A stretch of 64,000 bases of DNA from Balanoglossus misakiensis. Taxonomy: Eukaryota > Animalia > Hemichordata. This document shows, in pieces, positions 6,401 to 64,000 of this stretch; within the stretch, counting starts at the first letter, position 1; every line of letters begins with the position of its first letter. The position numbers and the translations under genes are program-made. The stretch spans positions 7,814,063 to 7,878,062 of the forward strand of contig CM082582.2 in NCBI GenBank assembly GCA_040954595.2, given 5' to 3'. The notes below the pieces were generated by a model. That model searched no databases, was not told the origin of the DNA, and saw only the letters and a list, made by a program, of their open reading frames with translations.

Positions 6401-7809
6401 CTCTGCACTTTGACCCCATCATGACCTTTGCCATTCAGAAGTTTTCTCACATGTATGGTTCAAAGGGTTGAAGTCGCTAACTTTTGTCATAAGTTTGGTT
6501 GGGTTTATTTTGAGTGACAGATTTAAGATTGATACTCTTTCTACTGGTGGCTGGTTAATGAATACTGACTTAATATTCTCACTTGCATTCTCACTAATTA
6601 CTGTAAAAGAGACACCTTGTCATTTGCAGACACTCACAAAATGTACAATTGTTTATGTCCTCTGTTGGTATTGTTTTGACAGGTTTGATTTTCTGACAAT
6701 CTAAACCAGTCATTTATTGTTGATAAATGTATGTGGCTTTTTCATCTCTTTGTTGTAGCAGGCAGGAAAAAATGGATAGTGGTGATGATGATGATGATAA
6801 TGATGGTGGTGATGATGGTGATGATGATGATGAGACAAGAGCTAGTTTCAGCGATGTGTCCAAGTACTACACTGACTACATAGAGGCAGTGAACATTCAA
6901 GAGAATTTTCTGTCGCACGTTCACGTGAAATCAGTCCGACGTGTCAAAGGTCGGACGATCAACTGCGAAAGCGGGGAGACTGAATGTGTGGCGGATGCAG
7001 GCCCGGCCGGATACGAGAACCCGGCGACTCTGTTCGAGGTGATCTGCCAACAGGACGGCGAGGTGGAAGGGCAGCCGTACGACTTCAAGATCCACGCGAG
7101 GAACGTGGTCCTGGCGTCCGGGATCTCCGATCTGCCGAGCCGGCTGGAAGTGCCCGGCGAGGATCTGCCGTTCGTCGGCTCTCAGCTGCCAGAGCTGGAG
7201 CGGGCGGTGGAGAACGGGGAGATCGGCCCCGCCTCGGACCCGGTCGTGGTCGTCGGCGCGGGGCTCAGCGCCGCAGACGTGGTGCTGTACGCCCGACAGA
7301 AGGGCGTGCCCGTGGTGCAGGTCGTACGGAGGAGCGTCCACGACCCGGCCATCATACTGAAGCAGCTCCCGGCGGCCGTGTACCCTGAGTACAAGCAAGT
7401 GTACGAAATGATGAAAGGGGGCGCTGACTCCACCGACGGATTTCAGTGTTACGACAAGTGCCAGGTGAGGGAGTTTCGGCCGAACAATACGGTGGTGATC
7501 GCCGGCCCCGACAGCTGCAGGCTCATCAAGGCCTCCAAAGTCATGGTGATGATCGGCTCGCGGCCCAACCTGTCCTACCTGTGCTGCAGTGGACAGACCC
7601 TGGGCTCGAACCCGAAGCAGCCAATCACCAAGAACAACCCCATCATGATCGATCAGATGTCCAATGAGAGTGTAGTGTCGCCGGGGCTCTACGCCATGGG
7701 GGCGCTGGTCGGCAGCAACTTTGTCCGATTCCTGACCGGAGGGGCCTTGGCGATTGTGAATAATCTGGTCAGAAGTGATTTTTTGGAGAAAACTCAGGCT
7801 GAAGACTGA
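3406..7809 (+). CDS. OSGIN1/2: Oxidative stress-induced growth inhibitor family FAD-dependent oxidoreductase, ~519 aa. Exons 3406-3496, 4257-4390, 5083-5274, 6276-6367, 6759-7809
   Basis: Spliced TDVAIVGNGPSGISLSYILSG (FAD fingerprint), DLEYLSDGLEGRSSNPVSLLFDALHHPNADLG, GPPGGTWQ, VVVVGAGLSAAD, YPEY, GLYAMGALVGSNFVRF. All introns GT-AG and in phase; last acceptor is NAGNAG. Confidence 0.93.
4421..4503. mobile_element. piggyBac-like ~85 bp MITE; related copies at 51693-51777, 59167-59251, 63565-63649
   Basis: CCCTTTCACC...GGTGAAAGGG ends with TTAA (or degenerate) flanks; same internal sequence in four intronic copies. Confidence 0.65.
6775..6831 (+). repeat. (GAT/GGT)n tract encoding poly-Asp/Gly in OSGIN
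   Basis: Translates as DSGDDDDDNDGGDDGDDDD. Confidence 0.85.
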
Positions 7810-11119: not shown

Positions 11120-12614
11120 ATGGCGGCCGTGTCCATAGTGGTAGAATTGCTCCCCAAAATTGTGGAACTCGGCCATGAAATCTCCAAAATTGCAGACGAA
11201 GTGGAACGAAACAAAGAGGAGTGCAAAAAGTTGGCAGAGAGGATCACTGAGCTAACAGGCGCTAGACAACAACTTGAGGGTCTACAGGACGACGACAAGA
11301 GAAAACTTAACGACGCGCTGGTTAAATTCTACGCGTATCTGAACCAAGCTAAGGAATTCGTGTCCGAATTTCTCGTTATCGGTTGCTGCGAGTCCATCTG
11401 GAAAAGAAGCAGGCACAGATCTCGCTTTGAGGACTTCAATACTCGTCTTGATCAACTGTCGTCCGTGCTGCAGCTGGGCTTAGATATCGAGGTTAAGAAA
11501 GATGTGGGCCAAATTAAAGATCAGGTTGACGATCTCAAACAGCTTGTCAAACAAGGTGAGAAGAACCCACTACATGTATTTAGATCTGCCACAGTCGGAA
11601 TATTTATATTATGACGTAGGCCTTCCACATGGCCGGGGACCGATCATTCGATACGTCCAAAACCCTTACCTTGCGCTTTTACAATATTTATTGCCTATTC
11701 AGGTTCCATATCCGCTTTCATCTGGTCAATTCCCTTCTTTCTTTCTGTGTGCATTGTATAACCATTGACCAATAATTTGCAGGACACGGAGAAACGAAAG
11801 CTGAAATTAACAATCTTCGTGAACAGGTGGACCGTGATGCTGGACCGTCGCAAAACGATCACCAACAAAAGGTAGTGATGGCGGTAAGCTTAAATTTCGA
11901 CCGATTTTTTTTCGGTAGATAGAAATGCATAGTCTACAATAGTCAAAACGTTTTATGAACACTGAAGGTACTAAAAGAACTTTATAAGCTTTTTGGAGTG
12001 ACTGTTATACATGTACATGTTTAAAATGAACGTACACGTATGTAAGACATCGTTTATATACATGCTCTTTTTAGACACAACAGCAAGTACCTTTACCGGG
12101 AAGCTGTGATAATCATGGTAAGTTTGTTTTCACTAATAAATGGTAAATTTTGATTCTTATATTTAAGTAGGCCTTATACTGTTAGACTGAATGAATAAAG
12201 CGGGTGTTATCACAGTGATTTATTGCATATCGGCAGCGAGAGAGGTTGTATAGGTTTTTCACAATGCGAACGGAAGTAGGCCTACTAGTTTTCAAGTCGT
12301 ATACTGTATGAAACTTGGGACCACTTTCTCTTTGTGCTCCAGATCAAGACCGACCAGTGACCGACGGAGATATCAGGACCATCTCCAGAGCACTCGGAAG
12401 AGACTTGAAAAGACTTGCACAATCACTTGGGTTGAAAAGTGTCCTCATTGATACCATTGGAATTGACCATGGCCACTACGGCGTTGAAGATCAAGCCCAT
12501 CAAATGATGGTTAAGTGGCGACAGAGTCTTGGAAAGGATGCCAAATATTGCGATCTGGTTGACGCACTTGCAGATATCGAAAGACATGATATAATTGAAC
12601 AACTTTCCAACTGA
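11120..12614 (+). CDS. MLKL-type 4HB domain + death domain fusion, copy 1, 283 aa. Exons 11120-11555, 11783-11883, 12075-12117, 12343-12614
   Basis: Exon 1 has the MLKL N-terminal pattern (EVERNKEECKKLAERI...LNQAKEFVSEF...RFEDFNTRLDQLSSVLQLGL). Last exon is a death domain (LAQSLGL...YGVEDQAHQMMVKWRQSLG...LVDALADIERHDIIEQL). 436+101+43+272=852 nt, all GT-AG, in frame; no kinase exons. Confidence 0.88.
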
Positions 12615-13495
12615 GCGTCAAGTCACGTGTCTAATGTTTCTCTAGGCCTCTACTTCTATACTACGGGGACATTTACTCATTTTAAGAAATATTTACTCAA
12701 AAATCGCACAATTATACCGCCGTTTATTAATGTGATAATAACATTGCGAAAATTCAAGCTTTTGAGCACGCAAGCTCTTGTGTACGTATAAAGACACACT
12801 TGTATTTGTGTGTGTATGTTATTTCACCATTACGTTATATGATTATATTATATCATGCTACCGTCCGCCATTCTGAATGCTCAATCGTCTATCTAGGTAA
12901 TATAAAACGGATAGTTACAAAAGGGTTATATTCTATACTTGGTAACAAAAATAAAGCAATCGGCTGCTTTCTGTGAGTCAAGAAATTCTCATGTGACGGC
13001 AGGAACTCTTCTAACCATCAAAGCTTGAGCAGATCACATCCAGCTTGTCTTTCACTTCTGTGGATGGAAAAGGGGATGACAATTTTTCATGTAAATGTTC
13101 ATTATACAATAATAAGTGGATATGGAGACGTGTTCTCAAAAGAGAATTGAAATGCAAACTCAGCTATTAGAGCTGGACTAATGCCATATACATGTACACA
13201 TGAGCATCATATCAAAGACTTAAATTCTGAATATTAAAATTTGTGTACACGTGTGCCTATATAGCTCCGCAAGAAATTTCCATACAAACCATAGATACTG
13301 GATAAAACCCAAACCAAGAATGTCATAAGATTACATGATATAGTGACATGTACCCTATCAACTTGTCATTATTTTTCAAAAAATAAAATAACTCTCACTT
13401 ACAACTTTTTTTCTCACATTTTTTCATCAAGAACTGTCGTTGATGGAAAATTTATTGATTGGATCATTGCTGTAATCATTGCAGGGTACTACTTA

Positions 13496-21163: not shown

Positions 21164-22577
21164 ATGGACTTATTCCCCCAAATTGTGAAACTCGGCAATG
21201 AAATCTACAAAATTGCACACGAAGTGGAACGAAACGAAGAGGAGTGTAAAACGTTGGCTAGGAAGATCACTGAGCTAACCGGCGCTAAACAACAACTTGA
21301 GGGTCTACAGGAAGACGACAAGCAAAGTCTTGGCCAGGCGCTGGTTGATTTCTACGCCTATCTGAAAGAAGCTAAGCAATTCGTGTCCGAATTTCGCGTT
21401 ATCGGTTGCTGCGAGTCCATCTGGAGTAGAAGCAGGCTCAGATATCGCTTTGAGGACTTAAATAGTCGTCTTGATCAACTGTCGTCCGTGCTGCAGCTGG
21501 GCTTAGTTATCGAGGTTAAGAAAGATGTGGGCCAAATTAGAGAACAGCTCAAACAGCTTGTCAAAGAAGGTGAGAAGAACCCACTACATGTATTTAGATT
21601 TGCCACAGTCGGAATATTTATGGCGTAGGCCTTCCACATGGCCGGGGACCGATCATTCAATACGTCCAAAACCTTGCGCTTTTACAATATTTATTGCATA
21701 TTCAGGTCCCATATCCGCTTTCATCTTGTCTATTCCCTTCTTTCTGTGTGCATTGTATAACCATTGACCAATAATTTTCAGGACACGGAGAAACGAAAGC
21801 TGAAATTAACAATCTTCGTGAACAGGTGGACCGTGATGCTGGACCGTCGCAAAACGATCACCAACAAAAGGTAGTGGTGGCGGTAAGCTTAAATTTCGAC
21901 CGATTTTTTTTCGGTAGATAGAAATGCATAGTCTACAATAGTCAAAACGTTTTATGAACACTGAAGGTACTAAAAGAACTTTATAAGCTTTTTGGAGTGA
22001 CTGTTATACATGTACATGTTTAAAATGAACGTACACGTATGTAAGACATCGTTTATGCTCTTTTTTAGACACGACAGCAAGCTATGTTATTATACGTGGT
22101 AAGTTTGTTTTCACTAATAAATGGTATTATTTAAGTAGTCCTTATACTGTTAGACTGAATGAATAAAGCGGGTGTTATCACAGTGATTTATTGCATATCG
22201 GCAGCAAGCGAGGTTGTATAGGTTTTTCACAATGCAAAGTAGGCCTACTAGTTTTCAAATTGTATACTGTAAGAAACATGGGATCACTTTCTCTTTGTGC
22301 TCCAGATCAAGACCGACCAGTGACCGACGGAGATATCAGGACCATCTCCAGATCAGTCGGTAAAGACTGGAAAAAACTTGCACAATCACTTGGGTTGAAA
22401 AGTGTCCACATTGATACCATTGGAATTGACCATGTCAACTACGGCGTTGAAGAACAAGCCCATCAAATGATGATTAAGTGGCGACAGAATCTCGGAAGGG
22501 ATGCCAAATATTGCGCACTGGTTTCCGCACTTACAGAAATCGGAAGACATGATATAATTGAACAACTTTCTAACTGA
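21164..22577 (+). pseudogene. 4HB-death domain fusion, copy 2. Exons 21164-21569, 21782-21882, 22069-22098, 22306-22577; short exon 3 puts the DD exon out of frame (truncated gene or pseudogene)
   Basis: Both domains are individually open (MDLFPQIVKLGNEIYKIAHEVERNEEECKTLARKI...; ...YGVEEQAHQMMIKWRQNLG...). Exon 3 is 30 nt versus 43 nt in copies 1 and 3, giving IKTDQ* after the last splice. Confidence 0.7.
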
Positions 22578-23668
22578 GTGTCAAGTCACGTGTCTAATGT
22601 TCCTCTACTTCTATACTACGGAGACATTTACTCATTTTAAGAAATATTTACACAAAAATCGCACAATTATACCACCGTTTATTAATATGATAATAACATT
22701 GCGAAAAATCAAGCTTTTGAGCACGCAAACTCTCGTGTACGTGTAAAGACACACTTGTATGTGTGTGTATACTATTTCACCATTACACACTGTGTGTGGT
22801 GTGACCGTGCGGAAGTGCAAGATTCTAAAGGTCAACCTGCAAAAAATTTACTGCTGGTGGTGGTGGTGGTGTGTTTGAGTATTGGAGCCCAGGGCGGGGC
22901 ATTCCCTCAGTAAAGAATATTAATACTAGTGAGTGCCTCCCGAATGAGCCACTTTTTTCAGTACACATTTCAATGGTATACTTGTAAATTAGGGGGTATT
23001 TTGGATGATGTCGATGTCGTTGACGAGGAAAGGGAGTATCTTGAAATGTTGTCATGGAAAAGAGCATGGTTTCGCATTTCCCCTGAAAATGTGAAGCGAT
23101 TATATGTGATGTCTGATGGAGATGGCCATAAATTATTGTGGTTGCAGTAAAATTAGTTATTCTTCAATTAACTTTATGTTTCCGTCAATGTTTGATAGCA
23201 AAATGATAATCACCCCTAAGTAAGCACATTACAGAAAATACTGTTCATTTGAATGTAAACTCACGAAAAAAATATGAAAGAATTTCTGATATACCAATTA
23301 CCAAGTTTGTGTAACTACATGTATAACACTCGTTTTTAAAATGGTTTCAGTAGATTTACTTTCGAACTTAGAATGTTCCATTTAAGTGAGTTAACTGATT
23401 GGTTCACACAAATATATTACCAACCTCTGATTGTTGTAAGTTTAAAAATAAATTCTGATGTGGCTTTAAGGCTTACAGACTCTAAATGGCCCTGCCATTT
23501 TGATCCTACAGTGAATAATCACTACAGTATTGCTTCAGGGGAAAATATTACAATATAGTCATGAGTATTCATATTTCGGACGGAAGGGGCATTCGTCAAT
23601 GTGCCCCTTTGTGCAGGCATTTTAGCAAACAATAATTTTGATGAGAATAGATTGACTTTTTGTTTTTT

Positions 23669-26600
23669 TTAGTGTAAGTACTCCACAAGATCCGCTCGCT
23701 TAATGTCCATGAGGGCCTTAGCCAGTACTGCGCGTGTGGCCATTCTTCCACGCCCCTGCTTCCATTTGACCAGCATTTGATGGGCTTGCTCTTCAACGCC
23801 ATACGCCTGGTGGTTAATTTCTATGTTCGCTACTAAATGCTCCTCAAGTTCGAGATGTCTTGCCAGAAATTTCCATTCTTTATTCACCCTCTTGGAGATA
23901 TTCGTCAGCTGTATGTTAGTCACTTTTGTATCCAATTCTGAAAGTTATTGAAATGTTGACTATAGTTATCATTTTTATATGACTTAAACGTTCCTCCAAT
24001 ATCTCGGAAATTTTTTTTGGATCATTCAAGACGAGACAACATTTAAATATTTTAAGTTGAGATTCAAAACCTTACTTCAGATGAATTGATAATACACAAA
24101 AAACTTATTCCAATATTTTCATTCGAATACCAAAGAAATCCCTCAGGCAATGTAAAACATGGGTAGTAGAGAAGGAAGAAATGATATGTTTAACTGTATT
24201 TCATGACTTCTGTTTGTTACAAAGTTTCATAATGACCAAGTATCACTTTAGTTAATGAACTCCCATTTTTTTAAAAATGGAAAAAAATCGGCAACCTTTG
24301 TGTCGACCATATGAGTTTTTCATCACTAACTTGTGAAGCATGAACCTACTTAAGGAAGGGAGAAAGCCACTGTATAAATACTTGCCATAATAGCCATCTA
24401 TATTCAGTATATTCCAAAGTTCATGGGTCAATTTATTGCAAAACTTCTGTCACGGTTTTATCTTATCTGTCTGTTCTGCGTAAATGTGCATTGGCGTTAT
24501 GTATACGTATTGTCACATATATTTGTTGTCATCTGTTGCCGGGTATATTTGGTATGTAACAATACCCATCAATTGATTGATGAGTTTTCAGTCTTTCAGC
24601 AACAATTAAGGGTATTGACAACAGTTATAGTTCATTTTAGTTCCTCTAACATCTGTCATGCACATTAGTATCTCAGTGTTGACTTGATCATTCAAAGCCA
24701 TAGAAAGAGAGGTATTAACTGGGCAACTTCTTTCAGATAGGACAGTGATGTAGCAAACAGTTACTGTGACAATCATAAGTGTGTTGGCCCGAGTCTATGC
24801 AGGTAACGGCTGTGTCTAAATCCTAACTACACAACTGCACCCGAATATCTGATCACAGGTTTAGCCTTGAATTGAAACTGTACCAAATTTTATTTCAATC
24901 CAATCTGCTCTCCATGACATATCAATCAATGCACGCACACTCACACTCACACTCACACTCACACACATACACATGCACAAAGCAAGTTTTGCATGTGAAC
25001 GAAGGAGTCCAAAATCAGGAACACCAACCTGAGCTTGATGCTGCTTTCTTGAAATCAAATCCAGCAGCCCTGGCTTGAGAAGCTTTATCTGATATGAATT
25101 CAAAATCAAACGGGGAGGCCATCTTCCCTTTGTCTTCTTCATGGTCAATGTCACTTTCATGTAAAAGATAAGCTGCATCTTGAAATCTTGCCAACGACCA
25201 AGCCTCACCATCTGTGCTCTCACAGAAACGCTGCATACTCTCTTGATCCAACTTGACCCATGTTGCACCATCTGTATTGGTTATCTACACCAGAACACAA
25301 ATGACAATCATTAATTTATGACTTTTATGACCATGATACCTACCACCCAACAATCCAGGGATTTTTGGTGACTAGTTATTCAAATTTTAATATTTTGGTT
25401 TTGTGCAAAACTTTCTTAAAATGAGGTACTTTTTAAATTCATAACAGGGCCATTACATCTAGTCTTCATTAACAAATGGTTAAGAATGTATAAGTTCAAA
25501 AACATCGATATGGGACCATAGACTTGGTCTCCCAGTTTGCCAAAAACTTAATCTGGGACCCAGAAATTTTAAGATGTATAGTCTGATATCATATGTATCA
25601 ATGAACGCTGTTGCCAGTGAGACATATGGCAGGTCATGAATAGTCCACTGAATTTTATTCACAATTTGACTGTCGGTTAAAACATAGGTTCAGAAAAAAT
25701 GGAAATTAAAATATGTGACCATGAACATGTAAAGGGTTCCCCTATAAAAAGGATTATACCTCTACTCTATATATGGCTATGTATAGTTGTCTGATATGCT
25801 CTGTGTCCCTTTCTCTCAAAAACTGTAGAGGGCGCATGAGTGTAAATCACATAAAGAGTCTCATGATGGAGTCCAGTGTACTGTAAAACACTTTATTTTC
25901 GCGAGTTAAAATTTTCGCGATATCGAGAGAAGCCACTGTTTCGCAAGTATTAATTTTTGTGTTCTCTTATTTCATTCACTGCATCGTTATCTTCAAAAAA
26001 AATTTACGCGACTTTTTATTTTCACGTTATTTTGGCTCTCACGTATTTCGCGAAAGTAAAATGTTTTACAGTATTACAAAACATGTGTCTGTGTCCTATT
26101 TGCCCTGCAAGTGCCCCCAAAATGTGGTGTTTGTCTCTATCTTTGGTCTCAGGAAATGTACCATTTTGGGATGACTCCCATCCCCTAATGTGTTACCCTC
26201 ATGTCCAATCAATGTGCATAAGGTAACTGAATACTTACATCTTGCATAACAGTCAACTGATTTCCATGAACCAACATACCAACTGGTGATGCTTTCAATG
26301 ATGGACGACTGCGGATGTTGTGTCCTGAAGAACTACATTTCACAACTTGGTAAATACCAGGGCCACTTGTTAAAGTACCTACTATAGTAGAAAGTCAAAG
26401 AGAGTGAATTTACTGGATACATACAGAAAAAGACACTGTCTGCAAGGCCCTAGTGTATTGTCCCTGTATCAAATTTGAATGAAATATCTAAGTATGGAAC
26501 ACAAGAAAGGATCAGGTAATACCTGTGATGTTGGTCCCTTGCAGTTGTCGACTTATGTCATCCGTAGCACAATCACCTGCGACTCTTTGGGATCCCGAGT

Positions 26601-29035
26601 CTTGTTGGTCCTTTGCATGACGACGACGTCGACGACCTGAAATGATTGGCAAATTTCTGTAACAAGGGCTTAGGTAATTGTCGCCGACAATTCATACGTG
26701 TACAATCATCATCGCTATTGCTGAAAACTGAATTCTGATGTCTGACCAAATTCACCTGCATTCATCGACACTTTCTATCTTAGCTAGTGTCTGCAGCCAA
26801 TAATGTAAACTTGATCGACATGAAAATGTACTTAGGCCCCTAATCTCCGTCAATCAAAACCCAGCGCGTCAGTTAATTGCAACAGACGACCATTCATTCA
26901 TTCAAACTGTGAAAATGTATTAAGTGGCCACAACCTCCTACTATTCAATTCATTATATAATTTAATTTAGTCTGACGGACTTGAAAATGGGACCCACAGG
27001 GCACATAAATATATTTCTTCTATGGGGTTTTGTTTTATAGAAAACGCTAATTTCTCTCTCGTGGCACCACTGCCATTTTTCACTTTCCATTCATGCAGCA
27101 TCTGATAGTTCTGTTCTCTCAAAGTTGTAAAACTGTTCGCAAAACCATCATCCAGTTGTTTATCACTGAATTAATCAACACTCTGTTCCGAGGGATCAGA
27201 ATTATTGCCCAACGTGTTCACTGACATTATCGATGTTATGAACAGTCACTTGAGTTTTGGAGGCTGTTACGAAACAACAAAGACGCCGTTTGGCATTCAA
27301 CTTACTAATGGTCACATATGGATCAGAGCCTTTTGATTTGCTCTCGAGTTTCACATGCAGACGCATGACTTTGTTGTCACCAATTATAACTTCTTCGACA
27401 TGATCATTGATGTCTATAAAGGTACCTCCACCAGCTCCTTGATTATATAAGTAATAAACATAAGGTCATTCTCCCATTCGATGGAAAATGTTACATGAAA
27501 GAGTGGCATACACAAATACATTATTTAGGGACTGGTCAATTTCTTCAGCCTGGAGGTGGTGAATTAATGGGGGGGGGGGGGGGTCACCCTGTTTATATAT
27601 ATATTATATATATATACAAACAAACACAAATCGCTGGGGGGGGGGGTCACTAAGTTTTGGAAAGTTGACATAGGGGGGGGGGGGGTCACCCACTTTTCAA
27701 TGAGGGGTGATCAGTCACAAAATAGAATACACCCCCAGGCTGAAGAAACTGCCCAGTCTCTTATAGTAGTCAAAAAGGGGAGGCTGCAACCAGGAATCAC
27801 AACTATAAACGTCTTGGCAATGTACTAGTTCCCCTTTTCATGGTGGCAGCTGGGATTTGGTAGTCACGTAAAGTTTAAGTTCTATACATGCTAAGTCAGT
27901 GAAAAAAGGGTCGGGTGGGCTGCCATTTTGGTCAGAAATTTGACTGAAGAGAATAATCTCAGGACAGTGAAGTAATTAACCCAATCAACTTGGAGCAAGT
28001 CTACACCAGGTCCAAAGTTACCCTTTAAGGCTACTGGTGTTGGCCTGATGCCATTGGATAATTCAGACAGACCACTGTGTCGTTGCGGGGTGACTTTGGG
28101 ACATGCTAAAGATATGTTTTATACTGGGAGAATTAGCTTGGTCTCCATATAAACCAGTGTGTTTAAACACACTGGGGTATTAGATGGATACCAGCTAGGC
28201 TATGGGAGAATATATTCTCACACAGATGTCTATAAGTCACCAACCAACCGCTGTGTTGGTGGCAGATGTGAGTCGGTCCTGAGGGCCACGAGGAAAAGGT
28301 TCGGCAACAGTCCGAGGCTCTGGAGGGACTGTGCTTTGGCAGTGACTTCCCTGCAATATACTCCCTCTATCAACAAGAACATACTTTACAGACTTCTCAT
28401 TGACAGCGGCTTGTACAGGCTTGATGACCCTTTGGGCCCACTCACGTTGCTGCAATAATCACTGTTGCCATAGTGTTAAAGGCGAGTTTGTTCTGTCCTT
28501 TGTACTTTGTATGTAATGTCTGACCCGGCCCAATAGAACAGAACAACTGTGAAACCTCCGAAGCACTATTGTGTCATAAACGTAACTTACCTCCCTGGAG
28601 TCTTTCACCAATGTCTTCCACTTTCCTATCAACTTGGTCAACTCTCGCTTTCACGTCGAGTGTGATAGCCAGAGTAAAATCTTGTTCTATCTTGGCCAGG
28701 CACGCATCGAGGTTTTCAAATCCTGATTTGATTTTGTCTGCACAGAACAAGCTCTTGAAACGACCCTTCTGAGAATACTCGGACAAAAACTTCTTTGTGT
28801 CAAGGAGATAGCCGCGAAAGTGTAGCAAGATAATGTGGTATTTCTTCTTGTCCTCTTCACTCAAGCTGTTGAGGAAATCTTCAGTGGGTTTCAACCGAAC
28901 GATCCTGTCTGAAAGAGTCTTGTACCGCTGGTCATTCTTTTTGACTTCGTCTATGATTTGTACAATCTCCTCGATGATTTGAACCACAGAACGCAAAATC
29001 CCTACGGTTGAGCCCACAGCTGCGAGAACTGCCAT
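23669..29035 (-). CDS. MLKL-type 4HB + RHIM-like motif + death domain protein. Exon 1 29035-28591; candidate exons 27437-27306, 26636-26523, 26324-26280, 25271-25029; DD exon 23937-23669 (up to ~415 aa)
   Basis: Exon 1 is 4HB-like (EVKKNDQRYKTLSDRI...LLDTKKFLSEY...FENLDACLAKIEQDF) and ends in phase 1. Internal candidates are open symmetric phase 1-1 exons with AG/GT ends. Terminal phase-1 exon is a death domain (EWKFLARHLEL...YGVEEQAHQMLVKWKQGRG). Exon connectivity is inferred. Confidence 0.68.
25881..26071. mobile_element. Tc2/pogo-like MITE
   Basis: TA|CTGTAAAACACTTTATTTTCGCGA...TCGCGAAAGTAAAATGTTTTACAG|TA. Confidence 0.75.
27045..27263 (-). pseudogene. Degenerate copy of the RIPK1-like gene's death-domain exon
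   Basis: Aligns with 44018-43800 (CCTCC.AAACTCAAGTGACT..., GAACAGAACTATCAGATGCTGC, GCCACGAGAGAGAAATTAGC); in-frame TAA at 27204-27202 and further lesions. Confidence 0.8.
27528..27760. mobile_element. Harbinger-like MITE
   Basis: TTA|GGGACTGGTCAATTTCTTCAGCCTGG...CCAGGCTGAAGAAACTGCCCAGTCTC|TTA, with internal G-runs like the 13496 element. Confidence 0.7.
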
Positions 29036-29733
29036 ATCACTGGAATGGTTATGAGATACTCGCCTGCCTTGGTTTCAGCCCTTCCTTAATTTTTTATATG
29101 CGGAAGTGCAAGATACTATAAAACATCAAACTGCAATTAATTATTAACTGTAAGGGACTACTCTACTTTATCTGGGGGAGAGTTGGAGTGAAGGCTATGA
29201 ATTAATATGTGCCACCTGGATGTGCCGCTCTTTAATGTTAACCTTCTGAACCTCTCTTGGCCCTTTTGTGCTGCAGGATGACCTGTTGACCCCTAATTTT
29301 TGAATACGCTGATGTCAAGGCATTTTCCCGCTGCATTATCATCACCAGGTCCATGCCAATAAGTTTTAATAAAGAGTGGCTTTAAGCTTGTTATATAGTG
29401 ACAACTCATACTTTTAGTGAAATCTGTTTAACACACATTACACAGGATCAACTATGAAATTGACAAAGTCTGATTGAATCTTCATTAGATCACTTGATCT
29501 GAAAACATTCTTTAATACTACCCTTGGCCACATATACAGATGGAAACAGAAGACTTTATGACCATTTTCAATTATCAAAATTGGCTGCATCTAAAATTAG
29601 GATCCACAATTTCTATCTAAATAATATAAAATGGATGGTTACAACAGGGTTATATTCTATACTTGGTAAAAAAATAAAGCAATCGGCTGCTTTCTGTGAG
29701 CCAAGATATTCTCATGTGACGACAGGAAATCTT

Positions 29734-33020: not shown

Positions 33021-33271
33021 CGCGGCCCAACCTGTCCTACCTGTGCTGCAATGGACAGACCCTGGGCTCGAACCCGAAGCAGCCAATCACCAAGAACAAC
33101 CCCATCATGATCGATCAGATGTCCAATGAGAGCGTAGTGTCGCCGGGGCTCTACGCCATGGGGGCGCTGGTCGGCAGCAACTTTGTCCGATTCCTGACTG
33201 GAGGGGCCTTGGCGATTGTGAATAATCTGGTCAGAAGTGATTTTTTGGAGAAAACTCAGGCTGAAGACTGA
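33021..33271 (+). pseudogene. Duplicated 3' fragment of the OSGIN last exon
   Basis: Near-identical to 7559-7809; starts mid-exon at the duplication junction. Confidence 0.9.
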
Positions 33272-36711: not shown

Positions 36712-38198
36712 ATGGCGGCCGTGTCCATAGTGCTAGAAATTCTCCCAAAAATTGTGGATCTCGGCAAAGAAATCTCTAAAATTGCAGACGAAGTCAAACG
36801 AAACAAGAAGGAGTGCAAAATGTTGGCTGAGAGGATCACTGAACTAACTGGTGCTAAACAACAACTTGAGGGTCTACAGGAAGACGACAAGAAAAAACTT
36901 AAGGACGCGCTGGATAAATTCTACACGTATCTGAAAGATGCTAAGGAATTCGTGTCCGAATTTCTCGTTATCGGTTGCTGCGAATCCATCTGGAAAAGAA
37001 GCAGGCACAGATCTCGCTTTGAGAACTTAAATACTCGTCTTGATCAACTGTCGTCTGTGCTGCAGCTGGGCTTAGATATTGAGGTTAAGAAAGATGTGGG
37101 CCAAATTAAAGAACAGGTTGAACAGCTTGTCAAACAAGGTGAGAAGACCCATTACATGTATTTAGATTTGCCACAGTTGGAATATTTATGACGTAGGCCT
37201 TACACATGGCCGGGGACCGATCATTCAATACATGTACGTCCAAAACCCTTATTGCATATTCAGGTCCCATATCCACTTTCATCTGGTCAATTCCCTTCTT
37301 TAATCTGTGTGCATTGGCATAACCATTGACCAATAATTTTCAGGAGAAACGAAAGCTGAAATTAACAATCTTCGTGAACAGACTGACGCTGGAGAACCGT
37401 CACAAAACAATCACCAACAAAAGGTAGTGGTGGCGGTAAGCTTAAATTTCGACTGATTTTTTTTCGGTAGATAGCAATGCATAGTCTAGACTACAATAGT
37501 CAAAACTTTTTATGAACACTGAAGAGGCAGTGACTTTGATAACTTAAACCGCTTTATAGTTATATATAAACGAACTTTATAAGCGTTTTGGAGTGACCGT
37601 TACACATGTTTAAAATGAACGTACACGTATGTAAGACCTCTTTTATATACATGTACATGCTCTTTTTAGACACAACAGCAAGCACCTTTACCAGGAAGCT
37701 GTGTTAATCATGGTAAGTTTGTTTTCACTAATAAATGGTAAATTTTGATTCTTATATTAAGCAGGCCTTTATACTGTTAGACTGAATGAATAAAGCGGGT
37801 GTGATTTATTGCATATCGGCAGCGAGAGAGGTTGTATATTAGGTTTTTCACAATGCGAAGTAGGCCTACTAGTTTTCAAATCGTATACTGTATGAAACCT
37901 GGGACCACTTCCTCTTTGTGCTCCAGATCAAGACCGACGAGTGGACGACGAAGATATCAGGACCATCTCCAAAGAAGTCGGTGCTGACTGGAAAAGTCTT
38001 GCACGATCACTTGAGTTGAAAAGTGTCCTCATTGATACCATTGAAATTAACAATAGCAGCTACGGCGTTGAAGAACAAGCCTATCAAATGATGGTTAAGT
38101 GGCGACAGAGTCTCGGGAAGGAGGCCAAATATCGCACACTTGTTAACGCACTTAAAAAAATCAAAAGACACGATATAATTGAACAACTTTCCAACTGA
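36712..38198 (+). CDS. MLKL-type 4HB domain + death domain fusion, copy 3, 277 aa. Exons 36712-37138, 37344-37435, 37670-37712, 37927-38198
   Basis: 427+92+43+272=834 nt in frame; EVKRNKKECKMLAERI...RFENLNTRLDQL; DD EVGADWKSLARSLEL...YGVEEQAYQMMVKWRQSLG. Confidence 0.88.
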
Positions 38199-38594
38199 GC
38201 GTCAAGTCACGTGTCTAATGTTTCTCTAGGCCTCTACTTCTATACTACGGAGACATTTACTCATTTTAAGAAATATTTACACAAAAATCGCACAATTATA
38301 CCACCATTTATTAATATGATAATAACATTGTGAAAAATCAAGCTTTTGAGCACGCAAGCTCTCGTGTACGTGTAAAGACACACTTGTATTTGTGTGTGTA
38401 TGTTATTTCACCATTACGTTATATGATTATATTATATCATGCTACGGTCCGCCATTCTAAATGCTCAATCTTCTATCTAAATAATATAAAACGGATAGTT
38501 ACAAAAGGGCTATATTCTATACTTGGTAACAAAAATAAAGCAATCGGCTGCTTTCTGTGAGCCAAGAAATTCTCATGTGACGACAGGAAATCTT

Positions 38595-43749: not shown

Positions 43750-46700
43750 TTAATCGTACGGTAGCTTAGCTGCAGTGTCGTAAAGCTTCACTTCACATAA
43801 CAAGTTGGCTAATTTCTCTCTCGTGGCGCCGCTGCTAGCTTCTTCTTTCCATGCGCGCAGCATCTGATAGTTCTGTTCTTTCAAAATTGAATAATCGTGA
43901 GCAAAGCCATCCAGCTGTCCGTCGCTGAACCCACACTTTCTTCCGAGCGGTCGGAATTGGTGTCCGATGTGAACACTGATCTTATCGATGTCATCGGTAG
44001 TCACTTGAGTTTGGGAGGCTAAAAAACAAAAAAAAAGAATGACATGAATCTGGATCTGCTGTTTGGCAACCAATTTGCACGTTAAATCTACAAGGCCACC
44101 CCACCAAAAACATTTCGTAGTTTTAGTACATGTATATGCAACAGTCAAAATTGATATCAATAGTAATGGTCTGACACAGCTTTCTGGAGGATGCCTTTGC
44201 ATTTTGCATCAACATCAATCGCCAGGACTTATGTACAAGGATCAGGAGTTAATTCATGAGTGTATAATCACAACAGCACAGTATGACCAGAATAATTCCT
44301 TACTTGTTATCTTTATCTTCCTTCTGGGTTCAGAGCTCCTTGAAGACGTTGTTGTTGTTGCTGTTGCTCCAGTGCCACTGGATTTACTTGATCTGCCCGA
44401 CGGTTGCACGTACATGACGTTTCTGTCACCAATTTGAACTCCTTTAGTATTACCACTGATATTTATAATGCTAGGTCCTCCATTGCCTTGATTTATAAAA
44501 GTAACAATAATAAAAATGAAACTTTTTATACCCAGTTTGGAAATGAATAAAGCGAGGCTGATTAGCCGTGGTTAGCTCCGGCACTTCCTTCAAAATGGCC
44601 GCCATGATTGGTATACATGTAAAACAATATTTATTCTGAAATCAATGTCCACGCCATCAAAATTTTTACCGTGTTTGATAATCGTTGTACCACCATGCGG
44701 TGGAGGCTGCATCCCATACCCAGGGTACATCTGTGGTGCTCCCTGCAATTACAAGTGTAGAACTTCTGTGATTAAAATAAGCTTTCTGATGGTTATATGT
44801 CGCTGCACATGTAAGCAAGTTGCTGGTGCCATATCTGTTCACACTTAAGAGTGCCAATTCGTCAAGGGCAGTCGTCGACACACGATATCACTAGTTTCTA
44901 CAATGTCCATCTAAAAGATGCTTGTGTGATACCAGTTTTCACTACAGATACTTACTGGATATGGCGCGTAGAATGGGGGCATCATGCCAGGTGGGTAATA
45001 GCCTGGTTGTTGCATATACTGGGGAACAGGAGGTATATGGCCAGTAATGCCTGTAGTGTGGATCATGGGACGAAATAATTCATTATCATGTAAAGGCGTG
45101 GTCACAATCAGTTTGAATATCTGTGCTTAAGCAAAAAAAAATCGTGAGTTGTATGAATGATATTCATGATGGTGTATGTTTTTACCATTTTTACCTAAAA
45201 TCACATCTGCTCTTTCAGTTAAGTTCTTGTTCAATTTTTACCACGAATAAGGGGAGCAAGTATCCAAAAAAATTAACCATATTTCTGTTTCTTTTGTTCT
45301 GCCTTGAAAAATATACTAATTATTCTGACTTGCGCGAAACTTGTTTCAAATTTTTTGATGTGAAACACCACACAGTTTACATTCCCTTATCTTACATGGA
45401 CCAAACATTTGAATTGTAGACATAGGGTCGACTAAGTATCGGTCAAAAAGCACTGTAGTATGTGGTCATGCAGCTTTACCTTGTGTGCTGTGGCTTGTAT
45501 TGCCACTGTCGCCCCTACCAGAAGCAGTACCAGCAGTTCCAGCCAGACCCTGGGGAGGAACCATGAGTGGGTGTTCACCAGGTTTGTGCGTCTCTTCAAA
45601 GGGCTGGGCTGAACTCTTCGCCTCACTCTCAGTAACATTCTCGGGTCTCTCCTGGCTGGTTGGACCTCGACTCGTCCCGTACGGGACTTTCACTTTGGTT
45701 TCACTGTCTCTGGTTGGTCTCGGCTGGGCTCCCGTGGTTATGGCTGTAAGTCAGCGAAAAAGCTATAGTTATGGCCAGATATGCAATCTCTTTCTTAATT
45801 AAAGGGCCACTATGTCACTTCTGCCGATTTTTTCAGTAGTTTTGTTTTTTGTGTGTGTTGGGGCTACTTTTTCTTGTTCTCCTCCCTATAGTATCACGAC
45901 ACACCCAGCTTTCTGCTCGTCAAGAGGTCATGTGTATCTGTACTGTCCACCATAATTGTTCGTAGATTTATTCAAGTCCAGACTTGAATACAATTTTTCA
46001 AACAATAACAATGTCAATTGTGCACATGTTGACATGGAAAAGTTGCCACTTACGAGGATGTTCGAAACTCTGATCGGCATCTTGGACAGTTTCGCTGGGC
46101 AGAGCTACAGAGACTGACGACACCGGTTGACTTTGCGAAGCCAGCGTGGTTCTGGCCATCTGCGCCGTGACATCACTTACGCTGGAATCAGTTTCTGCCT
46201 CTGGTTGACTTACAGATCTGCCTGCAGCTGTTTCAATTTGAGATCTTCCCTGAAAGTATTAATTAAAAAAAAGCGTGTTCGTTTTCCGAAATACAAACAT
46301 CTCCATTTCAAACTATTTAACAACTGTCTGAAGTGAACAAGCTGACTATTCTATCCTCCATATAATTAGATTCTGGTATATTGTCAAGAATGTTACACTG
46401 CAGTGGACATTCAGTTTTGAGTTTTGTTTGCCAACTGTTTGAATGCTAATCACCATTTTATTGTTACCGTGTCGGCCATATTACCAAACAAAATAAGCAC
46501 AGCACAAGTGATTCATGAAGACTACCATTTACGAGTAAATTTCGGCGTTTTGGAAGGAAGGTTGCATAACTACAACTTCATACTTGTCTCTAAACACCAG
46601 ACATGACAGCCACCGAACGTAACATTTGGCAGTTTCTTACCCGTTCTTGCTGTATGAGGTTTATAGTGGCCTTTGATAATGCATCCTCATGCTCTCTATC

Positions 46701-49995: not shown

Positions 49996-52900
49996 ATGGC
50001 AGCCTGCAGTGAATCGTTGCGTGTTGATAGAGACAAGCTGGACCCCACGTTCGATGGGTATAAATTGTCGTTGGACCCACTCCCAGTGTACAGTCTGTCG
50101 ACAGAGAGCGGTAAGTATTGTTTTGTCCCGTCCTTTACAAGGCCGTGACATCTGACATAGGTATCAGGGATTTATGGCTGATGAGCGGTCTGCCATCAAT
50201 CAATCAACCTATCGTGTACATGTACACACTACTGAACGCAAGCTCCACGTCATCTTCTCCACGTCGCTGAACAAACGCTGCAGGACGCTGCAATAATTGA
50301 CATGACCGTGAGCATGCACAATTTCTTTAATACAGCCGTGGTTCTTCTCACTACCTTAGTGGATTTTTACCTGTGCTAGGGGGTACTATTCAATATTGTA
50401 TTGAAATTGCATTGTGGGTAAAAAGGTCGACAACTCAACAGTCATAGGGAGAATTGAAACAAATAAATAAATAAGTAAAACTTGTAAACCTATTCCTAAG
50501 GTGGCATGGAATACTCATGGAAGTATACAATACAATATTTTTTGTCAACAGGTGTAGATGAAGTAAAGCTGCATGAAAACCAGTATTCGTTGCAGCATGT
50601 GAAAGCGTTTGGGATACACAACTATTTGGTGATGGACCAATGGAATCCACACTGTGTATTCTTTGTTGATGACCAGTGGAAAGTCAAGCAGATGAGAGTT
50701 GTACTGGTTAGTAAATAGCAAAAACATGGAAGTTTTTCACCTTACATTTGCAAAGTTCTGAACATTTTGAAGGAAGACCAGAAGTCAAGTTACTTTGGTA
50801 TGTCGCTGATGTGTTACATGGTCATCAGTATTGTCAACATACAAAATAGCTGATTGTGACCCTCGTGGCTTTGTTTTGAGAATGAGATTTTTATCGGGCT
50901 TTCACGAAGAAATGACTTCTTTGCAGTGATCACTGAATTGTGTGTTGGTGTCTCAGCGAGCTTTTGTTTGTGTGTTCTTTACTCCAGGAAACCCAGCTAG
51001 AATCCACCAAGACAGTATTCCAGATACCAGCGTCCAATCACAAATCAGCTTCCAACAGGCACTTTGTATCGTTTCATTTCCCAAGTCCCCATTGGTCAGT
51101 CCTGGCTGATGGTGCTGGATCACTGTATATATTAGAGACAGGCAACAGGGACCAAGAATCACCTCCAGAATGGAAGGTATGTAAATGTGTGATATACCAG
51201 TAATAGGAGAATATACAAACTGTATACACTTACAGGAAAGGGGGACTTTGTCACAATGGAAGGTAGATGGGGTACTATGTGCTCAGTCGCTGTGGCTGTC
51301 ATCTCTCAGATAAGCTAGCTAGCTTCTGAATTCCTGCCAATATTTACTGATTCTGTTACAGATAGCGCATTCTGAGGCAGTGTGTGGCAGTGAAAGGCCC
51401 TTCGTTGTGTTGGACTCCATTGTACATGTGTCAGACTCGAAGTGCACCATTGACTGTCTGCTGATATATATCGAAGAAGCTAAGCCGGACAGCTCCGAGG
51501 AATCAGAGTCCTCAACATCCCATTTTACATCGGTCATTGAATGGGTCACACTCACCAGACAAGGAGGTAGGTCAGCTATCTTGGTGGTTTGTTAGTTTGC
51601 AGTGTGATCCAATATGGTTGCCATAATTCCATTTTTCTTATCTGGAGCCATACATAGCTGATTCGTCTTCCATCCACCACATTGTAATTTAACCCATTCA
51701 CCCCCATTTCCCTGTATAGAGGTCCATCACTGCCACTGAGAACAATGGAGTTGGACGAAACCATGGTGGTGAGAGGGTTAAAATGTAGTAAAATGTGGCC
51801 GCCGCTCAGTCATTTTTCTGTGGATTTTAGTGGTGTTCAGGGTTGGTAGTGAAAAACACCTGAAATGATTTCTTTTACTGTTGGTACATGCTCTGTGAAC
51901 CATACCAAATGTGTACAACTTTCTGACAGTTACAGACCAGTTTGAAGTGGAAAGAAAGCGGAAACTGCAGTCCAAGGCAGCGCCTCAGTACGCGGCATTG
52001 GAGCCATCGGCTGAAGCTGTGTACATTGCTGCTGACTCCGACTATGAAATGGTGGAAGACTCGGTCAAACCTGTGAAAGTCAAGGACACCAAGGACAGCA
52101 AACGTCAGAAAGGTACATTGTAATGGATGCCAGTTGAGATAAAGGATATCTGTGCATGGTGTGAAAAAATTACGCAGGGATTATAGAAATGGGATAAATA
52201 TGTGGACAACCTATTAAAACTTAGACCATATCAATTATGGTATTTACAGCACACCAACTATGTGTTACATGTACATGTAACTGGGTAGCTGTTTATCAGA
52301 ATAAGTTACTAATCGCTGTGGCTGGTGCATTCAAATTCTGTGTGTTGCCCATGTGTCTGATGCGCATGTGAAAGTGTGCATATACTGGACCATCCTGGGT
52401 TTTATAAGAAACCAAAAACGCACTTACTGTGATATGCTGAATGAAACATTGCATATTAAAGAAACAACGTCATGTATTCATGATAAAATATCTGATGGTC
52501 AGCATGGTTTATCCAGGCCTATGTTTTTCCCCCTTGCTCTAGATACTGTCTACAGTTGGACTCAGTCCGTGGATGATGTGACCGTAACGTTCATTCTACC
52601 AGAGGGAGTCACCAAGGCGGACATTGACTATAAACTGACGTGCAAGGACGTAATTCTGGAAATCAAAAACCTGGTGACGTTACTGCAAGGAGATTTGTTT
52701 GCAATGGTGGACGTTGAAGCCAGCACCTGGACAGTGGAGAATAGGAAGTACGCGTGGGGTTTGTCTTTAACCATTCCCAGGTTGTTCTCAGTCGTGAATA
52801 TCAAATTCTCCTTGGGGGTGGGTGGGGGTGGTAGTGTATTGTCAGGATTTTCTAGGCTTTACCAGTCTCATCAATTGAAACTCAATCAAGTCTCATGCAG

Positions 52901-54254
52901 CTAGAATATTACATTCCAGCCTTTCTGCTGAATTCTCAAGAATATGTCGTAAAGCTGCATTTTACATCTGTATTCTAGGTTTGAACTGACACTGGCCAAA
53001 GTAGAGAGCGGTCCATTTTGGTCAGAGGTAGTGAGGGGTGACAAACGAGGGGAGTATGTCACTGATTCTGACCAAGCCGCAGAGATCCACGAAAGACTGT
53101 CTCATCTGACCTCCGACCAACTGGTAAGTTTTCCCTTGCAGCCTCAGTGAAGCCAGAGATACCATATGATGCAGTTTGCCTCTGTAAATGTGATTCGTGG
53201 TTTGATGCAGCAGCTTGAAAAGCAGGTATGAGGATGACGACCCCCGGGTATTTACCACGCACAACTGGGGTTGGATATTAGTGTCTAGTGGGTAAATGTC
53301 CAGGGGGTAACCATCCTAGAACTCCGCTTTTGAAAATGATACACATCACCAACTTTCCTGAACTGCACTGATCCTGCAGTGTACAAGCTTGCCAGATACT
53401 GTAGGTCACTTTCTTTCAAGATAAATTTATCACTTGATTGGGTGTTCCTTTTTTTTCAGAGCATTAGCAATGATGAAATAAGACCAGTATACAACACGCA
53501 GGAGTTGGAAGAGTGTGATGCATTTCCCGAAGACTCGTCTGCCATGGCTAGAATTGATGGAAATAAGCATGAGATCACGAATAAGGTTTGTGCCCTCAGA
53601 CATTTTTTTTCCATATGGCTTTCAGACATCCCTCAGTATTAGTGCATGAGCAAAGAGATAAATACTTTAATGCAGCAAAATGATAGCTGTTTGGGTTGGT
53701 ATAGAGTATCTCTCGCACTTACAGTTTGTAAAATATACTCGTAAATTTAGGTAGCACACACAAAGCTATGTAATTATAATTCTGTGGTGTTTTCAATCCA
53801 GGTTAGTCTCGGCAGCAACCAGTGGCTGTTCAACGTCGCCATCGAACCAGGCAAGGCACCGGCCACCTGCTTACGTTATGACGTGGACGGGTTGATATGG
53901 CAACCGGAGAAGCCCGAAAATGGGGGATCACCATGGAAACACATTGCGACATTCAACGCCCTTGGCTATGTGCAAGCCTCGAAAAGGGACCGGAAATTTG
54001 CCAGCTGCGCACCCAACTTGTCGTACGTCGCTCTCTGCGACTGCTCAAGGCATTTGTACGTTTACAGACAGAGCCTGCCGACTCAGACTCCCCTGAGAAA
54101 CAGAAAGACGGGGAAAACGGTCGGCCAGGTAGCGAAGCAGCAACTTGTTACCTTGGATACGAATGACAGTATACTGGGATTCCAAGCAGCCAACGAGAGA
54201 TTGTATATACTCACAAAAGATAAGATATATCTTGTCAGAATTCCGAAGGCATAG
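49996..54254 (+). CDS. NUDCD1: NudC domain-containing protein 1. Exons 49996-50110, 50552-50706, 50988-51176, 51362-51566, 51936-52112, 52543-52747, 52979-53123, 53460-53585, 53802-54254
   Basis: [42 protein letters not shown] domain [50 protein letters not shown]. Confidence 0.95.
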
Positions 54255-59400: not shown

Positions 59401-60827
59401 CTGTTTCTAATGTTGGAAGTAATCAGAGTCCAGGTGGTAATGTAAACCCAAGTGGCAATTACAGGTATGTGTATGTATCTGAACAACCACAATATCAACA
59501 ACAGCAACAACAACAACAACAGGTGAGTTTTGTACAGCTCTGTGCCACAACCTAAATCATCGGGGGTCTTGTAGAATATTATTATAGGCACACTGTCAAA
59601 TCGTCATATTTCTTATGGATATACCAGTGACTTCGTCCTGGTTTGCTCAAATATTGTTAGGAAATTGAGCTCACATATGTAAAGTTTGGAGCCTGTTGGT
59701 CATAACTAATACATGTACTAGTATCTGCCACACTTCAGCGCACCAATTCCTATCAAATGAGAGCAAAATGTCTTTCGTGCTATTTGCATTAGAAAATCAC
59801 CTTCAAAACATCTTGGCAGGTTGATATTTCCGAGTACACAATGGTCCCTGACAAATGTCAAATACCGGTAGATCTATGAATTGATAATTGTTTGAATGAA
59901 AGATGGATATTTAAAAAAACTTTTTGTTTTTTATTTACTTTCAGATGCCCCAGTTCATGCAGCCACAGTACATGCAACCACCAATTGCATATGCACGTAA
60001 GTATTTTTGCAACCATACCGCCAATTTGTCAAAGCAATTATGCTTGGAAAGTCAACGGGACAAGGCCCAAAGATAGCCCTATATGACAATTTCTCACAAA
60101 TACTTATGTTCGTGTGCACAGAAGTTTCTTCTGTACTGCCTGTATAGTCAAGGCTTTGCTGTGACCTTTATCAACAGAAAATGTGTACAACATTCAAGAT
60201 GCATCTCAAGTGATGATTGGTGGGCCTGGAACTAGACAAGACACTAGATATCCAAATGCACCAATAGCGTCACCTGTAGCAGAGCGAGCTCAGCCAAAAG
60301 GTAAAATGAGATGCATTATAAAGCAAAGGAGTGTTGAGTATGTACAGTAAAACCTTGATATGATGAAAGTCCACTGTTTATAGAACACTGTTACATATCA
60401 CATGAATGGAACTTGTAGGGAGTTGAACAATGAACTTTTGTATATACACAGAATATTATACTGAAAATACCAAAAGTTAAAGCTACTATCACTTTAAAGT
60501 GAAACTAGATTATTGTAGGCCAGATATACATGAATAATGACTTATAAAACTTGTCCTTCAGAGCCAACTGCTACAGTTGCACCAAAGACATTACTGCGGA
60601 TTTCCAAGAATATTGGCCCCAAGTGGAAGGAGCTTGGAAGGTGGCTGCAGTTTACCGACCCCCAGATTGACACCATCGAAATCGACCACCACCATTACGG
60701 AGTCCAAGAGCAGGCGTATCAGATGCTGTATCGGTGGCACCAGAAAAAGGGCAGAGCGGCTACACACAGTATTCTCGCCGAAGCCCTGAATGATATTGAG
60801 CGACCGGATCTGGTCAGCCACCTGTAA
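56420..60827 (+). CDS. Second RIP kinase (RIPK2/3/4-type kinase domain) with RHIM-like motif and death domain, ~556 aa. Exons 56420-56577, 57006-57318, 57446-57591, 57721-57770, 57943-58104, 58541-58623, 58805-58982, 59383-59522, 59945-59996, 60178-60300, 60562-60827
   Basis: VGRGAFGVVYLANHKDWETKVAVK, LVMEYMENGSL, WPLRWRFLAELCTGMNILH, HLDLKPGNILLD, ITDFGLSK, GGTVTHYPPE, CWDQDPKERP; VYNIQDASQVMIG; DD GPKWKELGRWLQF...YGVQEQAYQMLYRW. Exons sum to 1671 nt in frame. Confidence 0.88.
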
Positions 60828-63984: not shown

Positions 63985-64000
63985 GTAATTTATCCTATCT

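Follow-up and report, generated by a model that had tools for sequence, protein, structure and literature searches.

The gene described here invites comparison with the fungal protein HELLP, which was reportedly described by Daskalov et al. in 2016. Known from Podospora anserina and Chaetomium globosum, HELLP consists of a HeLo-like domain and a PP motif (PMC7885112, PMC7889193; here and below, published sources are cited for their accessible parts). According to the accessible parts of PMC12881547, PMC13506858, and PMC7889193, RHIM amyloids act in animals as kinase scaffolds that phosphorylate MLKL, and direct amyloid templating of a domain of the four-helix bundle (4HB) type is reported for fungi and bacteria alone. 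We analyzed a stretch of 64,000 nucleotides (nt) from the hemichordate Balanoglossus misakiensis (hereinafter, the window), which consists of intron-rich animal DNA with a cluster of cell-death genes, and focused on a reverse-strand gene in which an MLKL-like 4HB exon, without a pseudokinase, has behind it a duplicated 3′ end of a neighboring RIPK gene (Table 1). An earlier interpretation made from the letters alone (the sequence-only reading) had proposed that this gene could be an animal analogue of the fungal amyloid-activated effectors. The explanation that we favor, to which we grant about an even chance, is that the gene encodes a kinase-less 4HB protein clustered via an intact death domain (DD), the RHIM exon being a relic.

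To judge from the alignments, the RHIM-like exon and the broken DD exon behind it are a duplicate of the last two exons of RIPK-a, the RIPK1-like gene of the window, with 69–78% nucleotide identity. The RHIM region matches positions 44413-44513 at 72% over 101 nt, acceptor included (blastn, E 3e-7), and the DD copy matches 43808-44020 at 75% over 220 nt (E 1.5e-36), in the same order and on the same strand as in the donor. The captured exon retains the unusual acceptor of the donor exon (at 44487), is 51 nt shorter with the frame kept, and aligns with the donor at the protein level with a score of 55, reached by none of the 2000 shuffles. The coordinates, the acceptor, and the blastn match thus agree with the open exon homologous to the RIPK1-like RHIM exon that the sequence-only reading had described. 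The VMIG exon of RIPK-b, the second RIPK gene of the window, was rejected as a donor, its similarity to the captured exon being at the shuffle level (1116/2000). The DD copy likewise carries the stop at 27204-27202 noted before, to which we add a second stop at 27198, a 4-nt insertion at about 27175, and a 3-nt insertion at about 27152; it ends at about 27046, short of the last helix of the donor DD. Ten other introns of the window, sized roughly and with some boundaries off by a few bases, span 127–449 nt, so that the 42-nt interval between the two captured exons is probably retained or bypassed. The predicted 4HB-RHIM product of approximately 212–226 amino acids (aa) can be specified as 212 aa if this interval is spliced and 226 aa if it is read through. 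No terminal repeats or target duplication, the marks of a transposon, were found around the captured exons, and no remnant of the pre-RHIM RIPK exons or of MLKL exon 2 was detected within the 6.8-kb block 22787-29610 that holds the whole studied gene.

Exon 1 is recognized by the Pfam MLKL_N profile (PF22215) with 39.8 bits (E 3.9e-10), above the cut-off of 27, and a profile of this exon and its relatives retrieved seven MLKL sequences of the PDB as the first matches (E 3e-6 to 6e-5). Its 4HB is 26–28% identical to the MLKL 4HBs and 28–36% identical to its paralogues at the protein level; given the 69–78% nucleotide identity of the captured exons to RIPK-a, the capture appears to be much younger than the 4HB gene. 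In the 4HB tree, exon 1 sits on a long branch (2.4) and none of the five inner branches is well supported; the Ptychodera flava protein described below may or may not be an orthologue. A word-indexed homologue search with the 4HB exon recovered 0 of 442 candidates, a weak negative, and the AlphaFold model of the 4HB (pLDDT 48.7) is too poor for use. The N-terminal helix is amphipathic, with a moment of 0.69, the highest among the seven compared. A tblastn search with the Glandiceps MLKL gave no kinase match in 22787-29610, and all splice routes from exon 1 terminate, without a pseudokinase, either at 27204 or at the terminal DD. Upstream of the exon lies a possible core promoter composed of what we take to be an ETS-like motif and a TATA-like box. 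That this 4HB would kill at the membrane is assumed from its family, in which a number of MLKL N-terminal domains from invertebrates are lethal to human cells (PMC11476962).

Downstream of the captured fragment, five predicted splice routes lead from exon 1 to the terminal DD and are open to the final stop (237, 281, 370, 414, and 452 aa), and the 4HB, SH3b-like, and DD exons, about 1110 nt, contain no lesion and have matching phases. The 4HB-RHIM-linker-DD form foreseen in the sequence-only reading is therefore retained in that in-phase routes reach the DD, but the supposed linker is not featureless and holds a two-exon SH3b-like segment. The first of these exons aligns with the front half of SH3_3; the second produced only bacterial SH3 (SH3_3/SH3_4) or unlabelled Atlas clusters (0.80–0.84), which we treat as a lead only, and a word-indexed search with it recovered 0 of 156 candidates, another weak negative. 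Both exons presumably resemble a stretch of MYCBP2/PHR, an origin that was unconfirmed by PDB, metagenome scan, or literature searches; the single metagenome locus, among 217 stretches, was a bacterial gene that matched by chance over 13 residues. The SH3b-like segment, together with its intron, is a second captured module in the gene, and short stretches resembling decayed or micro-exons are seen at 26790-26698 (-), by eye phase-incompatible with the main route. The terminal DD is 44–50% identical to the DDs of RIPK-b and of the three 4HB-DD genes of the window and 29% identical to that of RIPK-a; by sequence, the RIPK-b DD (about 60562-60827) would be its closest kinase partner type.

A phmmer search with exon 1 against 1.84 billion representatives yielded four matches at E up to 0.001, three of which carry MLKL_N. 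The best is Ptychodera flava XP_070575923.1 (270 aa, E 1.1e-11, 31% identity), which is named MLKL and has no kinase; another is a 224-aa MLKL_N protein in which no RHIM-like tail was seen, and one, a repeat protein without MLKL_N, was discarded as a chance match. XP_070575923.1 comprises the 4HB, a brace, a coiled coil, a low-confidence linker, and a terminal RHIM-like motif centered on FQVG, ends four residues past this motif, and has no DD. The linker is Q/G/P/M-rich and homologous to the pre-RHIM exons, and the Gln and Asn of the motif are kept. The last 80 residues align with the pre-RHIM and RHIM exons of RIPK-a with a score of 82, reached by 0 of 2000 shuffles; against the captured exon, the tail scores 35, reached by 30 of 2000. 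In its AlphaFold model, with a mean pLDDT of 55.5, helices extend to residue 191; confidence is low from residue 192 onward, and three short strands, likewise of low confidence, cover the motif. Foldseek placed MLKL executioner domains in its six best rows, all with E above 0.001, and a PDB sequence search found MLKL at E 3.7e-5. This protein is one predicted RefSeq model and a singleton in the searched collection, and a word-indexed search with it found only the query itself (1/976), a weak negative.

At the level of a predicted model, XP_070575923.1 reproduces in an animal the layout of the fungal HELLP, and it is more convincing than the studied locus. The proposal of such a layout in animals survives in two respects, the capture behind a 4HB being real and the P. 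flava protein having come to light; motif function in the Balanoglossus gene is hypothetical. The locus and the P. flava protein probably stem from two separate fusions, judging by their sequences; this is the simpler history because the latter keeps the brace, coil, and pre-RHIM sequence that are missing at the studied locus. Gene conversion could mimic a young capture.

The captured core, VIIG, departs from the canonical RHIM tetrad, (V/I)-Q-(V/I/L/C)-G (PMC9444067); the donor has VQIG and P. flava FQVG. Three N/Q ladder residues common to RIPK-a and P. flava, namely, the first-strand Asn, the Gln of the core, and the Asn that follows it, have all changed in the captured motif, and 5 of its 22 residues are acidic, compared with 1 in the donor; N/Q ladders stabilize RHIM and PP fibrils (PMC7885112). 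Two comparisons that had been proposed as checks gave the captured exon no support. Among the four motifs scored with the Pfam RHIM profile (PF12721), the donor alone was matched, at 17.1 bits and under the cut-off of 20, with no match for the captured copy, the P. flava tail, or the VMIG motif; and over its first 24 codons, the captured motif compared with the donor has pN 0.33 and pS 0.20 (nonsynonymous and synonymous differences per site), that is, a ratio (dN/dS) of 1.9, so that purifying selection is not seen. For the dead DD copy, dN/dS is 0.65 over 60 codons. The earlier suspicion that the motif may be decayed is strengthened by the VIIG core, the lost ladder Asn and Gln, the acidic gain, and the missing PF12721 match. 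The chance of all lesions landing in the DD part is 0.24 for three lesions and 0.15 for four, and the open frame of the captured exon is weak evidence for function. All the tetrad variants tested in the accessible part of PMC12119088 kept the Gln and hence are not applicable to VIIG; the PDB sequence searches with the RHIM-like pieces were powerless because the donor, too, gave no RHIM structure. Between function and decay of the captured RHIM, the balance leans towards decay.

According to the explanation that we favor, an old 4HB gene would have taken up the 3′ end of a RIPK gene late, yielding a 4HB-RHIM-DD fusion, after which the captured DD would have died and the RHIM drifted, with the downstream DD staying intact. 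Splicing would join the 4HB to an eroded RHIM-like segment and this in turn to an SH3b-like domain and the intact DD; the RHIM exon would be either skipped (237 or 370 aa) or retained to serve as a spacer (281 or 414 aa). With no pseudokinase, release of the bundle by phosphorylation would be impossible and clustering would be needed, for which the gene offers two putative handles, one being the eroded RHIM and the other the intact DD. If this DD binds to those of RIPK-b or of the 4HB-DD paralogues, the bundles would be brought together at high concentration and driven to oligomerize at the membrane. The combination of 4HB and DD has a local template given that three paralogous 4HB-DD genes are present in the window.

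Several observations weigh against this explanation. The splice routes are predictions that may not hold, and we infer the choice of DD partner from sequence as well. The dN/dS of 1.9 rests on 15 synonymous sites and is indistinct from 1 (Fisher p 0.53). Both splice sites and the frame of the captured exon persist despite a net loss of 51 nt; in simulations, neutral survival of a 132-nt exon was 3–38% at 0.15–0.2 substitutions per site. The second-position T is kept in 8 of 8 hydrophobic codons, with 10 of 18 other second positions changed, in a test that was chosen after seeing the alignment (Fisher p 0.008 raw; 0.033 by uniform and 0.096 by base-aware simulation); the dead DD copy has no such bias (2/13 vs 9/47). 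VIIG also fits the cryptic-RHIM definition, VxxG in an alternating hydrophobic pattern, with 8 of 8 hydrophobic positions kept; the criterion is weak, as the six reading frames of the window contain 67 instances of a similarly loose pattern. Among insects and shrimp, cryptic RHIMs of the VxxG type serve as functional amyloids (PMC13506858, a 2026 review). Finally, the MLKL N-terminal domain of the hemichordate Saccoglossus was tested and is not named among the killers in section 2.4 of PMC11476962.

We consider it unlikely that the gene encodes a HELLP-like effector, in which the exon would be spliced in, the cryptic RHIM templated by a RIPK fibril, and the 4HBs packed so as to damage the membrane without phosphorylation; the product would be either the 212/226-aa form, with the dead DD as the 3′ untranslated region, or the long form with both RHIM and DD. 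That an open exon with both splice sites intact lies beside a dead DD speaks in favor of such an effector, as do the retained hydrophobic pattern, the fit of VIIG to VxxG (PMC13506858), the similarly Gln-less VMIG of RIPK-b, and the match of the P. flava terminal motif to the RIPK1-like tail (score 82, 0/2000 shuffles). The fungal HELLP layout works and shows partial cross-seeding with RHIM (PMC7885112), and hetero-fibrils can be favored by opposite charges (PMC4262963), with Glu in the copy facing Lys in the donor. The motif itself, however, has lost three ladder residues and gained four acidic ones, combines a dN/dS of 1.9 with no PF12721 match, and lies about 5 residues from the 4HB exon, compared with about 90 in P. 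flava. The short form would, in addition, have to polyadenylate early to avoid nonsense-mediated decay, and the sole poly(A) signal, ATTAAA at 26966, is at about the level expected by chance in AT-rich DNA.

Two further explanations seem improbable to us, to nearly the same degree. The long branch of the 4HB (2.4) and a motif that gained charge while keeping its hydrophobic face would suit a decoy or brake, in which the charged motif caps or poisons RIPK fibrils, the DD sequesters RIPK, or both, the divergent 4HB being non-lytic. RHIM-like inhibitors, Pirk and viral RHIMs, exist (PMC13506858, PMC4262963), and a hemichordate MLKL N-terminal domain is not named as lytic in the accessible part of PMC11476962; yet the 4HB scores above the MLKL_N cut-off and keeps the amphipathic N-terminal helix (moment 0.69), and inhibition is hypothetical. 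Alternatively, the whole gene might be dead or dying, the RIPK fragment steering splicing into the 27204 stop so that the transcripts are degraded, and the other exons being open because the damage is recent. A good acceptor immediately ahead of the stop-bearing DD copy, and the absence of the 6.8-kb block with the gene from two of the three segmental copies, would fit this course of events. It has to contend with four lesions in the captured DD next to about 1110 nt of other exons that are lesion-free with matching phases, and with the 42-nt intron, probably too short for splicing where others have 127–449 nt.

Kajava and colleagues reportedly depict amphioxus RHIM architectures in their Fig. 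1B. No animal 4HB-RHIM protein is described in the literature searched, which covered accessible main text, so that prior notice is possible. We suggest, tentatively, that kinase-less 4HB-RHIM executioners arose in hemichordates on two or more occasions through capture of the RIPK1-like RHIM end, such that RIPK amyloid would template the 4HB without phosphorylation; XP_070575923.1 would then be the better preserved of the two, and the studied locus younger, with a cryptic or eroding RHIM. We regard amyloid gating in at least one of these two proteins as possible, with the doubts somewhat the stronger. If true, a 4HB-RHIM protein in a deuterostome would mean that animals are able to wire necroptosis the fungal way, and a single exon capture between phase-1 introns would replace phosphorylation by assembly as the gate of an executioner. 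One named protein, now labelled plain MLKL, makes it possible to test the link that has been proposed between necroptosis and amyloid cell death in fungi. Even with a dead RHIM, the kinase-less 4HB-DD proteins of the cluster would represent a third way of gating the MLKL bundle.

Table 1 Features of the studied gene and of its cell-death gene neighborhood in the Balanoglossus misakiensis window (positions counted from the first letter of the window)
Feature	Positions	Strand	Remarks
Possible core promoter: ETS-like motif, then TATA-like box	29090..29118	(-)	motif recurs at 22808-22827
Exon 1, MLKL_N / 4HB, 445 nt, 148 aa, open	28591..29035	(-)	ends phase 1 at GTAAGT
Captured RHIM-like exon, core VIIG, 132 nt, open, phase 1-1	27306..27437	(-)	acceptor ATCAAG, donor GTAAGT
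42-nt GT-AG interval, open in frame	27264..27305	(-)	remnant of the donor's roughly 285-nt intron
Dead RIPK1-like DD copy	27046..27263	(-)	four lesions in 218 nt, 3′ end missing
Possible 114-nt phase 1-1 exon, open, weak acceptor and donor	26523..26636	(-)	no family match; uncertain
First half of SH3b-like domain, open, phase 1-0	26239..26381	(-)	PF08239 SH3_3 E 0.0018, 18.9 bits, under cut-off 27
Second half of SH3b-like domain and tail, open, phase 0-1	25029..25284	(-)	
Terminal DD exon, intact	23669..23937	(-)	PF00531 E 2.6e-13, 50.4 bits, cut-off 22.6 passed
RIPK-a, kinase-RHIM-DD (RIPK1-like) gene	about 49000-43750	(-)	~17 kb from captured exons
Donor RHIM exon of RIPK-a, core VQIG	44304..44486	(-)	PF12721 E 0.0039, 17.1 bits, under cut-off 20
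Donor DD exon of RIPK-a, intact	43750..44018	(-)	PF00531 E 7.9e-13
MLKL gene	42900 onward		plus partial copy elsewhere in window
Three kinase-less 4HB-linker-DD genes	11120-12614, 21164-22577, 36712-38198	(+)	MLKL_N and Death matches
RIPK-b, second kinase-RHIM-like-DD gene	56421-60827	(+)	
RHIM-like exon of RIPK-b, core VMIG	60178..60300	(+)	without Pfam RHIM match

RIPK-a and RIPK-b both adjoin MLKL and differ in their cores, VQIG and VMIG, respectively. Because RHIM is reported absent from the ambulacrarian RIPK1 examined in the accessible part of PMC11507063, a hemichordate RIPK1 bearing VQIG is of note. The 4HB of the MLKL gene of the window is 53% identical to that of the Glandiceps talaboti MLKL; to judge by two named homologues, the DNA is likely that of an acorn worm. 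The architecture of the three 4HB-linker-DD genes could provide a direct link between the MLKL bundle and death-domain complexes. Partial MLKL copies at 32400-29740 and 15420-15290 (-) consist of pseudokinase exons only, the 4HB exon missing. No NLR-like open reading frame was noticed, by eye and with no profile scan, among the 89 of at least 90 aa in the window.

Of three segmental copies, one contains the 6.8-kb block, and the other two have about 55 nt in its place (12833-12888 and 38417-38466). A direct repeat, 22808-22848 and 29099-29142, brackets the gene, with 20 nt near-exact and 44 nt at 80%, occurs twice in the window, and contains the promoter-side ETS-like motif; it may be what is left of the promoter of a tandem copy since lost. 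The segmental duplicates are 84–97% identical and could include uncollapsed haplotypes. The flanking genes at 6727-7809 (+), 52305-54254 (+), and 62944-63988 (+) are, we presume, similar to OSGIN, NUDCD1, and CFDP1, respectively, and the 3′ end of the OSGIN-like gene is duplicated at 33021-33260 (+).

Compared with animal MLKL, represented by Glandiceps talaboti XP_077979536.1 and the MLKL gene of the window, the studied gene is alike in that MLKL_N is recognized above the cut-off and in being clustered with two RIPK genes and MLKL, and unlike in that it has no pseudokinase and that exon 1 is about 13 residues shorter at its end; without a pseudokinase, RIPK phosphorylation would not be its switch. 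With RIPK1-type kinase-RHIM-DD proteins it shares their RHIM-DD end, the captured pair, and with the insect and crustacean cryptic RHIM proteins a core that fits VxxG; unlike in both, the motif stands behind an executioner domain and not in a kinase or receptor tail. P. flava XP_070575923.1 similarly combines a kinase-less 4HB with a RHIM-like motif akin to the RIPK1-like tail but, unlike the studied locus, has the brace, the coil, the Q/G/P/M-rich linker, and the Gln and Asn, and lacks a DD.

The differences from HELLP concern the motif and its partner: the motif was copied recently from an animal RIPK exon, lacks the G-x-Q-x-G center and the flanking Asn, and would stand at the C-terminus in the short route alone, SH3b-like and death domains being added in the long one; the candidate partner is a RIPK and not an NLR, no neighboring NLR with a matching motif having been noticed by eye among the open reading frames of the window. 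The single-polypeptide layout of HELLP and HET-S would be realized here if the predicted in-frame routes are used, and amyloid formation and killing are hypothetical. What the gene has in common with HELLP and HET-S/HELLF is a 4HB-homologous N-terminal domain, no kinase, and then a RHIM-related motif (PMC7885112, PMC7889193), and, as with HELLP, a gene nearby encodes a candidate templating partner whose motif matches.

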